Part shown: positions 16,581 through 17,714 of the stretch, piece after piece
Layout: the number at the start of each line of letters is the position of its first letter
Position numbering within the stretch: the stretch's first letter is position 1
IMG/VR virus record: IMGVR_UViG_3300017700_000317
Span: 1 to 38,690 of that record
Direction: 5' to 3' (one strand)
Source of the DNA: a virus
Lineage: Duplodnaviria; Caudoviricetes
Length of the DNA: 38,690 nt
Notes under the pieces: model-generated
The model's database searches: none
Told to the model about the DNA's origin: nothing
Seen by the model: the letters and a program-made list of their open reading frames with translations, nothing else
Translations under genes and position numbers: made by a program

Positions 16581-16609
16581 AATAAAAAGCCCGAGCGAAC
16601 CCGGGCTTT
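16581..16609 (-). terminator. Intrinsic terminator (tL1-like)
   Basis: Minus strand AAAGCCCGGG-TTCG-CTCGGGCTTTTTATT. Confidence 0.8.
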
Positions 16610-16700
16610 ACCTTCCCTACGTCACGACCGGGCGCATGAGGCGTCGGATCGTTGTTGTCTGTTACATGGCTGCATCCTCCGCGTTGAGTTGGTAATTGGT

Positions 16701-16823
16701 TGGTGTGACTTGTCAGGGATTCGAACCCAAAAGACTTACGCCGATTTCGGCAGCGCTACCTAGTCGACTGCACCGGCTATACCGGGGCCCCTGATCCGCC
16801 GAGGCCAACTACAAGTCACACCA
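16701..16823 (-). ncRNA. tRNA-like structured RNA (non-canonical)
   Basis: 13-bp closing stem TGGTGTGACTTGT/ACAAGTCACACCA ending in CCA; GGG-TTCGAAT-CCC T-arm; internal hairpins; no canonical D or anticodon arm. Confidence 0.6.
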
Positions 16824-16895
16824 CCGGTTACCTCTCCATCACCATGGAGATATCGGGCCATTTTCGTCTGGCTGACGTGTACGGAGAGGGTGGTG

Positions 16896-17168
16896 TTACA
16901 GATCCAGGCTGTTGCGCAGATTGATCAGGCGGTCGGCGATGAGCATCACACGCTCTGCGCGGTTATAGATTTCGTCGGCGAGGATGCTTCTGATAGCTGC
17001 TTTCTGCTCGCCAGAGCACGTCGCGCCTACAGCACACGGCTGAGCCACAGTTACTTGGTGGAGGCGTCCTTCCATGTCTTGCACGACATCGCCGAGGCGC
17101 TCGATTTCACGCAGCAGGTTTTGACGGGCTATTTCTGAATCACAGATGGGGCTTGCTAATGCGTTCAT
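16896..17168 (-). CDS. First gene of the left operon, 90-aa coiled-coil protein
   Basis: GGAG RBS before ATG 17168; two heptad-like helices. Confidence 0.65.
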   Translation of the reverse strand: MNALASPICDSEIARQNLLREIERLGDVVQDMEGRLHQVTVAQPCAVGATCSGEQKAAIRSILADEIYNRAERVMLIADRLINLRNSLDL

Positions 17169-17184: not shown

Positions 17185-17420
17185 TGGCTTTCGAATGCCT
17201 CCCGGGGTGTGAGAGGCATTTGTAAAGCCAGATGGCCAGCCTGAAACAGCAGGAAGCCATCTGATATCCGGTCGCTCTCTACTGGAGGCAGCGCCGTCGA
17301 ATATTCAATTGTTTCTCTGACCGCGGATCTTCCCGCCAGATAACTGCTTTCGGTGCTTTACGCTGCACACCCGGGTCAGTTGCCAACCCTCTGAACCGTT
17401 GAGGCCGGTTCATCGCTGCC
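17185..17420 (-). promoter_or_regulatory. Structured 5' leader of the leftward transcript
   Basis: Hairpins TGAACCG/CGGTTCA, GGGTTGG/CTGACCC, GGTG..GC/GCACC, CAGATGGC/GCCATCTG and TGGCTTT..AATGCCTC/GAGGCATT..AAAGCCA. Confidence 0.55.
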
Positions 17421-17442
17421 GTGTTCGTGTTGCTTGAGACGA

Positions 17443-17471
17443 ACTATGGATCATCTCGGAAACCCCGTCAA
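17443..17471 (-). promoter_or_regulatory. Leftward sigma70 promoter (PL-like)
   Basis: TTGACG-17 bp-CATAGT. Confidence 0.7.
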
Positions 17472-17531: not shown

Positions 17532-17714
17532 ATGAAGACTAAAGATGTGATCGATTATTTCGGTGATGTGCGCCAGACAGCAGACGCCCTGGGCATGACT
17601 ACCGCCGCCGTCTACCTCTGGAAGGAGGACGTTCCTAAAAGCCGCCAAGCTCACGTGGAGCTGGTGACCAAAGGCAAGATCAAGCGCGACAAGCCCGTAT
17701 ATGGAGTGAAGTGA
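17532..17714 (+). CDS. cro: Cro-like HTH repressor (P22/N15 type)
   Basis: MKTKDVIDYFGDVRQTADALGMTTAAVYLWKEDVP...VELVTKGKIK. Confidence 0.85.
   Translation: MKTKDVIDYFGDVRQTADALGMTTAAVYLWKEDVPKSRQAHVELVTKGKIKRDKPVYGVK

Follow-up and report, generated by a model that had tools for sequence, protein, structure and literature searches.

On comparative sequence evidence, the window (the whole 38,690-nt stretch of DNA analysed here) carries a member of a conserved phage non-coding RNA family that lies in the early-left operon and is held by many Pseudomonas phages among their earliest genes. The element, including its extended closing helix, spans positions 16,691 to 16,832 on the minus strand and scores 122–127 bits with family models that include the window sequence itself. 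We consider it probable that this is a real RNA that dimerises. The family is not in Rfam 15, and the element had no Rfam match at the gathering score or at E ≤ 10; the check for a known family with ARAGORN and Rfam that the earlier note on this DNA had proposed thus returned nothing on the element. tRNA mimics and self-assembling phage RNAs are each already known. The family itself appears to be new: neither it nor any natural tRNA mimic dimerising through a conserved palindrome was found described in the open-access literature. Its motifs and contig identifiers are not in the four searched supplements of Fremin et al. 2023 (PMC10690425), and the family may stand unnamed in the alignment archives of that work.

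By a protein family scan of 56 proteins, the window belongs to a lambdoid phage of the Pseudomonas type whose virion genes are P22-like. The transcript probably starts from a sigma-70-like leftward promoter, TTGACG-17-CATAGT (17,443–17,471, minus strand), the single site found by a promoter scan in which 1.5 were expected by chance. Between this promoter and the RNA lies a 90-aa ORF without a family match (16,896–17,168, minus strand), and 80 nt downstream of the RNA is an intrinsic-terminator-like hairpin with a T run (16,581–16,609, minus strand), recognised by sequence and fold and absent from the scan listing. The operon also holds a Lar-like gene and a Gam-like gene, and the RNA lies upstream of these and of the recombination genes. 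Divergent from the promoter is cro (17,532–17,714, plus strand; P22_Cro, E 2e-20), and phage Orimi01 has the same arrangement of a leftward promoter-like site opposite cro. No cI intervenes in either phage (window, 17,443–17,714; Orimi01, locus L001, 3,638–3,960), and no integrase was found among the 56 window proteins scanned; for these reasons both appear to be lambdoid phages that lost lysogeny. Directly after the leftward promoter comes a conserved leader (17,303–17,429, minus strand) with matches in about ten GenBank Pseudomonas phage records and in 13 of 55 carrier loci. It contains three or four hairpins, has no Rfam match and folds as a single sequence no better than shuffles; it is possibly an antitermination element. 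Some family members are preceded by a sequence that we take to be boxA-like.

In GenBank, BLAST matches whose limits coincide with the ends of the element occur in four phages, Orimi01 and Orisa01-03, which are predicted to be virulent and for which no tRNA is listed in PMC11256456. Pattern scans, filtered by eye and with covariance models R1 and R2, found the family in at least 74 distinct IMG/VR contigs, a count to which one contributing IMG/VR pattern scan added from 31 of the 64 parts. Members score 60–147 bits with the family covariance models. A pattern scan of named genomes gave 52 matches, of which 10 were true members, all in Pseudomonas, and 42 were chance matches or ordinary tRNAs. 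Among metagenome loci, 24 of 31 were true members and seven were dropped; one locus (L202) is probably the window's own record and gives no independent support. In other scans, 10/45, 2/54 and 1/23 matches, as well as 7/9 new loci of a further scan, were dropped as chance matches or ordinary tRNAs, as were most non-members in the scan of 31 of the 64 parts. The spread of the family is patchy: when 21 candidates per genome were scored, strong matches were present in 3/151 genomes of the genus, one of them the seed; in 2/151 genomes at the family level, both already known; and in 1/151 at the class level, the seed. A query with the L248 member had no match in E. coli genomes, queries with L109 and L272 had none in GenBank phages, and a cro-based search for related phages gave two loci, both without the RNA. 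Five members lie among tRNA genes (L109, L210, L258, L346 and L348). Another (L095) follows an ORF that looks holin-like by eye, perhaps in a late region, unlike other members. Every locus with a match (250/250) has a single copy.

The arms follow one another in the order closing helix, 5-nt linker, D-like arm, hairpin at the anticodon position, long arm, linker GUAA(G/U)UCUU, T arm and closing helix. None of 200 shuffles folds as well as the 123 nt of the earlier note (z −3.44); minimum-energy folding of the window copy alone gives a structure other than the one supported by covariation. In an alignment of 41 distinct sequences made without structure, 92.7% of cells pair and 27 of the 38 pairs change on both sides, a count reached by none of 500 shuffles, slid controls giving 6–16. 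The proportion rises to 35/38 among 42 more diverse, model-fitted sequences. The earlier note's proposal of a tRNA-shaped non-coding RNA is therefore upheld by conservation and homolog covariation, and the covariation supports the fold including the GUAAGUCUU linker between the long arm and the T arm. RNAalifold recovered the same helices except the one at the anticodon position. Two U-G pairs are nearly fixed (41/41 and 39/41), which is a pointer to an RNA made from the minus strand, although the plus strand folds as well when compared with its own shuffles (z −4.24 against −3.82).

The closing helix is built from a 5' strand at 16,811–16,832 and a 3' strand at 16,691–16,713 (both minus strand), and 12 of 14 of its pairs change on both sides. 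Its core is the perfect 13-bp stem described earlier (16,811–16,823 with 16,701–16,713). It measures at least 17 bp in 42/42 members and often has a bulge 11–13 bp from the junction. The CCA that had been taken for a 3' end is not conserved and lies paired inside this helix, which extends to 16,691–16,832; no aligned member (0/42) has NCCA after a 7-bp acceptor, position +1 is G in 26/42, and the ends of the close relatives L391 and L208 differ from those of the window copy. A second ACCA (16,697–16,700) was also considered as the true 3' end and was rejected, being paired in the helix extension and absent from relatives.

The D-like arm (16,787–16,805, minus strand) has a 5-bp stem and the loop GGCGGATCA, with a GG that is present in all 21 distinct versions of the loop. 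It is preceded by the 5-nt linker (16,806–16,810, minus strand), whose G may form a weak pair with the C in the 3' linker (GC in 40/42); the putative helix between the two linkers has this one steady G-C, and a U-U in 32/42. At the anticodon position is a hairpin (16,772–16,786, minus strand) whose stem is kept and whose loop is unconstrained, varying in both length and sequence among 29 distinct hairpins with no conserved 7-nt loop. The GCCTC/GGGGC and CCGG-TATAG-CCGG hairpins noted earlier are indeed present in the sequence, but they occupy the very positions of the D and anticodon arms that they had been said to replace. The junction helix TAGTTG/CGACTA, which had been proposed to hold them, does not stand: 69% of its cells are paired, a level that shuffles also attain (37/500 as high), and its bases pair instead within the long arm, where five of six pairs change on both sides. 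It should be noted, as evidence to the contrary, that three of the six TAGTTG/CGACTA pairs (GTT) are pairable in 39–41 of 41 rows, with one-sided purine changes only.

The long arm (16,740–16,768, minus strand) takes the position of a variable arm and consists of an outer stem, a UA/GAA internal loop and an inner stem capped by a palindromic tip. The GCCG-AAAT-CGGC hairpin of the earlier note exists in the window copy but is owed to one base there, most members having GCCGAAATCGAC or GCCGAAGCTGGC. In L185 and L268 the internal loop is UAA/GAA, while in L249, L260 and L272 the palindrome is flanked by GAAA and AGUA, an arrangement that resembles a loop E motif. The conserved linker GTAAGTCTT (16,731–16,739, minus strand) leads to the T arm (16,714–16,730, minus strand), a 5-bp stem with one mismatch and the loop TTCGAAT; this is the GGG-TTCGAAT-CCC arm seen earlier (loop 16,719–16,725). 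The T loop reads TTCGANT (UUCGANU) in 42/42 members and fits UUCRANY. Both the T loop and the linker sat in several search patterns, so their conservation among distant members is inflated; a pattern made from the D arm alone gave 35 true members among 45 loci, all with a T arm. The linker looks like the variable arms with a GUAA cap seen in phage tRNAs; a GUAA-capped mini variable arm in the element was rejected, its closing pairs not being kept across members.

With no anticodon and no conserved CCA end in the family, a free loop at the anticodon position, no NCCA and a long closing helix, the RNA cannot decode as far as its sequence tells, and charging would require trimming and CCA addition, of which there is no sign. 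Such losses, together with a weak likeness to tRNA-Ser and tRNA-Leu, are what a decayed tRNA gene or a functionless attachment-site remnant would leave. The earlier note had named a decayed ordinary tRNA without compensatory changes as the outcome that would undo its proposal; instead, two-sided changes occur in every helix, the extra arm and its palindrome are conserved, the RNA sits inside an early operon, and neither ARAGORN nor Rfam calls a tRNA on the element, in the window or in 53 loci. Covariation refutes the decay reading, to which we give next to no credence. Descent from a tRNA with a long variable arm, of the Ser/Leu type, is plausible, because the best weak matches among T4 tRNAs are tRNA-Ser and tRNA-Leu (17–18 bits). 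The arm order with a long variable arm is that of type II tRNAs. The element differs from these and from allo-tRNAs (PMC5389517) in having no 7-nt anticodon loop or NCCA, an acceptor helix of at least 17 bp, and extra linkers. Phage T4 rnaC (species 1 RNA) is similar in being a stable phage RNA of 139 nt in a tRNA cluster with a GGGUUCGAAUCCC arm, but it was rejected as a member: it scores 15 bits with model R2, against 60–147 for members, and has different arms and no long closing helix.

The tip of the long arm, AGCGCT in the window (16,752–16,757, minus strand), is the predicted contact of a homodimer. Of 34 distinct arms, 33 have a Watson-Crick palindrome here that is at least 6 nt long, whereas palindromes of that length occur in 0/29 anticodon-position hairpins and 0/28 D hairpins. 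Over all loci, 66 of 67 distinct cores have a six-base palindromic tip, L239 alone showing a wobble form, GGCGUC. Seven hexamers are used (AGCGCU, GGCGCC, GUGCAC, AUGCAU, GUCGAC, CUCGAG and ACGCGU), with four central tetramers (GCGC, TGCA, TCGA and CGCG), those other than GCGC having come from patterns that left the tip unconstrained; most members share one hexamer, and the palindrome rests on about 4–6 independent changes. Shuffling the arm centres produces a palindrome of this kind in an average of 22% of trials, and the window as a whole under-uses 6-bp palindromes (548 seen, 663 expected). Tip positions 3/4 and 2/5 change in concert. Hairpin loops need three bases, and these positions are too close together to pair on the same strand, from which a homodimer is predicted; since each locus has one copy, the pairing would be between molecules. 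The predicted gain from dimerisation has a median of −19.5 kcal/mol for the long arm, against −3.8, −5.5 and −10.5 for the other arms, and beats that of random loops in 34/34 long arms. The simplest reading is that two copies of the RNA would pair through the palindromic tip. Since a loop of 4 nt leaves little room for a kissing contact, the dimer may need the inner stem to open. There is a likeness here to the HIV-1 DIS, a GC-rich 6-nt palindrome at a hairpin tip that forms a kissing loop or an extended duplex (PMC7357161), and two family members carry the DIS hexamer GUGCAC itself; this is an analogy without homology, and the palindrome here sits on a tRNA-like core.

Conserved intermolecular pairing of the kind that defines ROOL and GOLLD is present in the family at the level of sequence. 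OLE, ROOL and GOLLD are non-coding RNAs that self-assemble through conserved kissing loops, and ROOL and GOLLD are found in phages near tRNA genes (PMC12286853). The element could be a small counterpart of these, one module of an assembly made of RNA alone or of RNA and protein. The T-loop/D-loop unit would then serve as a structural rivet rather than as a mimic, and the RNA would partner with a phage protein or with another RNA from the same row of phage cassettes. The palindromic tip, the rows of other long-stemmed RNA cassettes alongside and the parallel with phage RNAs that lie near tRNA islands and assemble through kissing loops all speak for this. We judge it unlikely, as a single palindrome gives dimers, not cages (PMC7357161), no neighbouring cassette is constant, and arm order and T-stem length follow tRNA, the best weak matches in phage T4 being tRNA-Ser and tRNA-Leu. 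Moreover, the known assemblies are several hundred nucleotides long and not tRNA-shaped, whereas the element has 140 nt and one self-complementary tip, hence the prediction of a dimer; it matches none of the ROOL/GOLLD-type Rfam families.

What flanks the RNA changes between loci and is in many cases another long-stemmed RNA; in two loci a Proteo-phage-1 RNA adjoins the family member. In the window, a module of two hairpins is found upstream of the RNA (17,215–17,295, minus strand), whereas L285 and L352 have it downstream, which indicates that modules get shuffled. The same closing helix also encloses unrelated cargo in L186 (1,501–1,618), L354 (1,501–1,630) and L407 (2,510–2,630; phage PseuP_224), and it therefore looks like a shared device for release or insulation with the inner domain as payload. 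These two other cargoes, one of them common to L186 and PseuP_224, represent unnamed families. A further cassette with complementary loops (GGCTGAT/ATCAGC; GGTCGAT/ATCGAC) around a variable middle recurs in the downstream flanks of L101, L119, L083, L102 and L106 and upstream of L109 and L248. Other tRNA-like sequences were also seen. Those of L187 (1,501–1,597, plus strand), which sits inside a long closing stem, and L098 (2,234–2,305, minus strand) have D and T arms and a shrunken anticodon arm and come from the same phage region; L286 (1,134–1,251, plus strand) has an ordinary-looking phage tRNA in a long closing helix, adjoining a tmRNA-like gene; and an unrelated viral contig (L393, 158–345 and beyond) has a cluster of unusual tRNA-like repeats in which the T arm is present and the remaining arms are cut short.

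From the length of the helix and the frequent bulge 11–13 bp from the junction, we infer that RNase III is the enzyme that would cut the RNA out. Cleavage by RNase P, an enzyme that takes its measure from the elbow and forms pairs with the 3' end (PMC4919913), seems less likely because the helix is continuous, the CCA is missing and +1 is G in only 26/42. A helix of this kind may also be read as part of a cis element for processing and stability of the early-left transcript. A nuclease would cut at the helix, the compact tRNA-like fold would keep exonucleases out, and the palindrome would either bring transcripts together or make the fold more stable. The whole would tune the neighbouring early genes, much as an RNase III site does in the N leader of lambda. 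The constancy of the long, often bulged helix, its reuse with other cargo and the location of the RNA inside a putative transcript, between promoter and terminator, fit such a role. A cut site, however, needs the helix alone, which leaves the kept elbow, linker and palindrome unexplained, and the neighbouring genes vary freely, some copies even lying among tRNA genes. We regard this reading as a serious one, if on the whole doubtful.

The earlier note had favoured an RNase P-processed regulatory RNA with the antisense logic of C4 or CI, that is, an RNA that pairs with its own operon for immunity or premature termination. P4 CI RNA is a small phage RNA with a tRNA-like fold, encoded in an early regulatory operon. 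The C4 antisense RNA of phages P1/P7 (RF01695) shares with it and with the element small size, a tRNA-like fold within a longer stem and an early regulatory operon, and its precursor is an RNase P substrate according to a title cited in PMC11143913. Besides this likeness, the window and Orimi01 have cro without an adjacent cI, and the 7-nt complement GATCCGC pointed out earlier is present at 17,323–17,329. The complement itself stood but its significance did not, as the window has 11 copies of that heptamer against 8.5 ± 3.2 expected; the upstream copy folds into its own hairpin. Across 55 loci, the longest complement within ±1.5 kb was on a par with shuffles for the D loop (6.3 against 6.5), the tip (7.5 against 7.2) and the linker (5.9 against 6.0), and a candidate pairing of the tip with the leader motif GGCAGCG showed no excess over shuffles. 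The leader element is present within the fetched flanks in only 13/55 loci. A full-length cI lies upstream in 14/45 loci (ORFs of at least 170 aa within 2.4–3 kb), so that the RNA coexists with cI, and there is no match to a C4-family Rfam model. The element thus differs from C4 and CI in its want of complementary cis targets and in its palindromic dimer tip. Antisense action in cis is largely refuted by these comparisons, and we hold the C4/CI-like reading to be improbable.

YrlA and the bacterial Y RNAs (RF02553; PMC4201824) also mimic tRNA: they have D and T arms but take no part in decoding. The element might be a circularly permuted Y RNA that binds Ro60/Rsr through GCCGAA in the long arm, a sequence in agreement with the GNCGAA motif that Chen et al. 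2014 describe (PMC4201824). YrlA as described there has the order T, acceptor, D and lies beside rsr, whereas the element has the order D, anticodon position, long arm, T, and the carriers tested are without rsr: a TROVE gene is present in 0/6 carrier genomes and among none of the window proteins scanned, while 8/151 genomes of the genus have one. The element does not match RF02553, Pseudomonas YrlA RNAs match model R1 at the T arm only (11.7 bits at best), and GCCGAA is absent from distant members and was partly in the search patterns. We find this reading very improbable. Tandem YrlA pairs do lie beside rsr in Pseudomonas genomes (L219, L220 and L222), as expected.

Our preferred proposal, which we hold tentatively and put at somewhat less than an even chance, is that the RNA is cut from the early-left transcript, dimerises and acts in trans as a two-headed decoy of the tRNA elbow. 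As infection or induction begins, the leftward promoter would drive transcription, and a double-strand nuclease such as RNase III would release the RNA by acting on the roughly 20-bp closing helix. The GG of the D loop and the T loop would form the elbow, and two copies would join through a kissing loop or a 12-bp extended duplex at the palindromic tip. The dimer would then act in trans as a decoy for a host tRNA-binding protein, perhaps a dimeric defence or tRNA-surveillance protein, role and target being the least supported part of the proposal. We chose this mechanism because what is conserved is shape (elbow, linker and dimer) and not pairing information, because the RNA moves as a unit, and because lambdoid phages carry their host-takeover genes in the early-left operon. 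A true elbow geometry is uncertain, since at 5 and 9 nt the linkers exceed those of tRNA in length and position 15 is not fixed, and the neighbours of the RNA include no partner protein conserved across loci. The decoy for anticodon nucleases suggested earlier is unlikely because the loop at the anticodon position is conserved in neither length nor sequence; such nucleases (OLD) read features of the anticodon arm, according to PMC12445682.

A broader version is possible but doubtful: lambdoid phages of Pseudomonas and other hosts would make a homodimeric RNA with two tRNA elbows at a fixed spacing that neutralises a dimeric tRNA-targeting defence or surveillance protein, a counter-defence RNA built from tRNA and one exchangeable cargo in the row of early-left cassettes. 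The 140-nt RNA occurs in isolated phages (Orimi01 and Orisa01-03) and in prophages of named strains. If it is a decoy, it would be a new class of RNA in phage counter-defence against tRNA-targeting immunity. The seemingly empty intergenic stretches of lambdoid early operons, for their part, appear as rows of swappable RNA cassettes.
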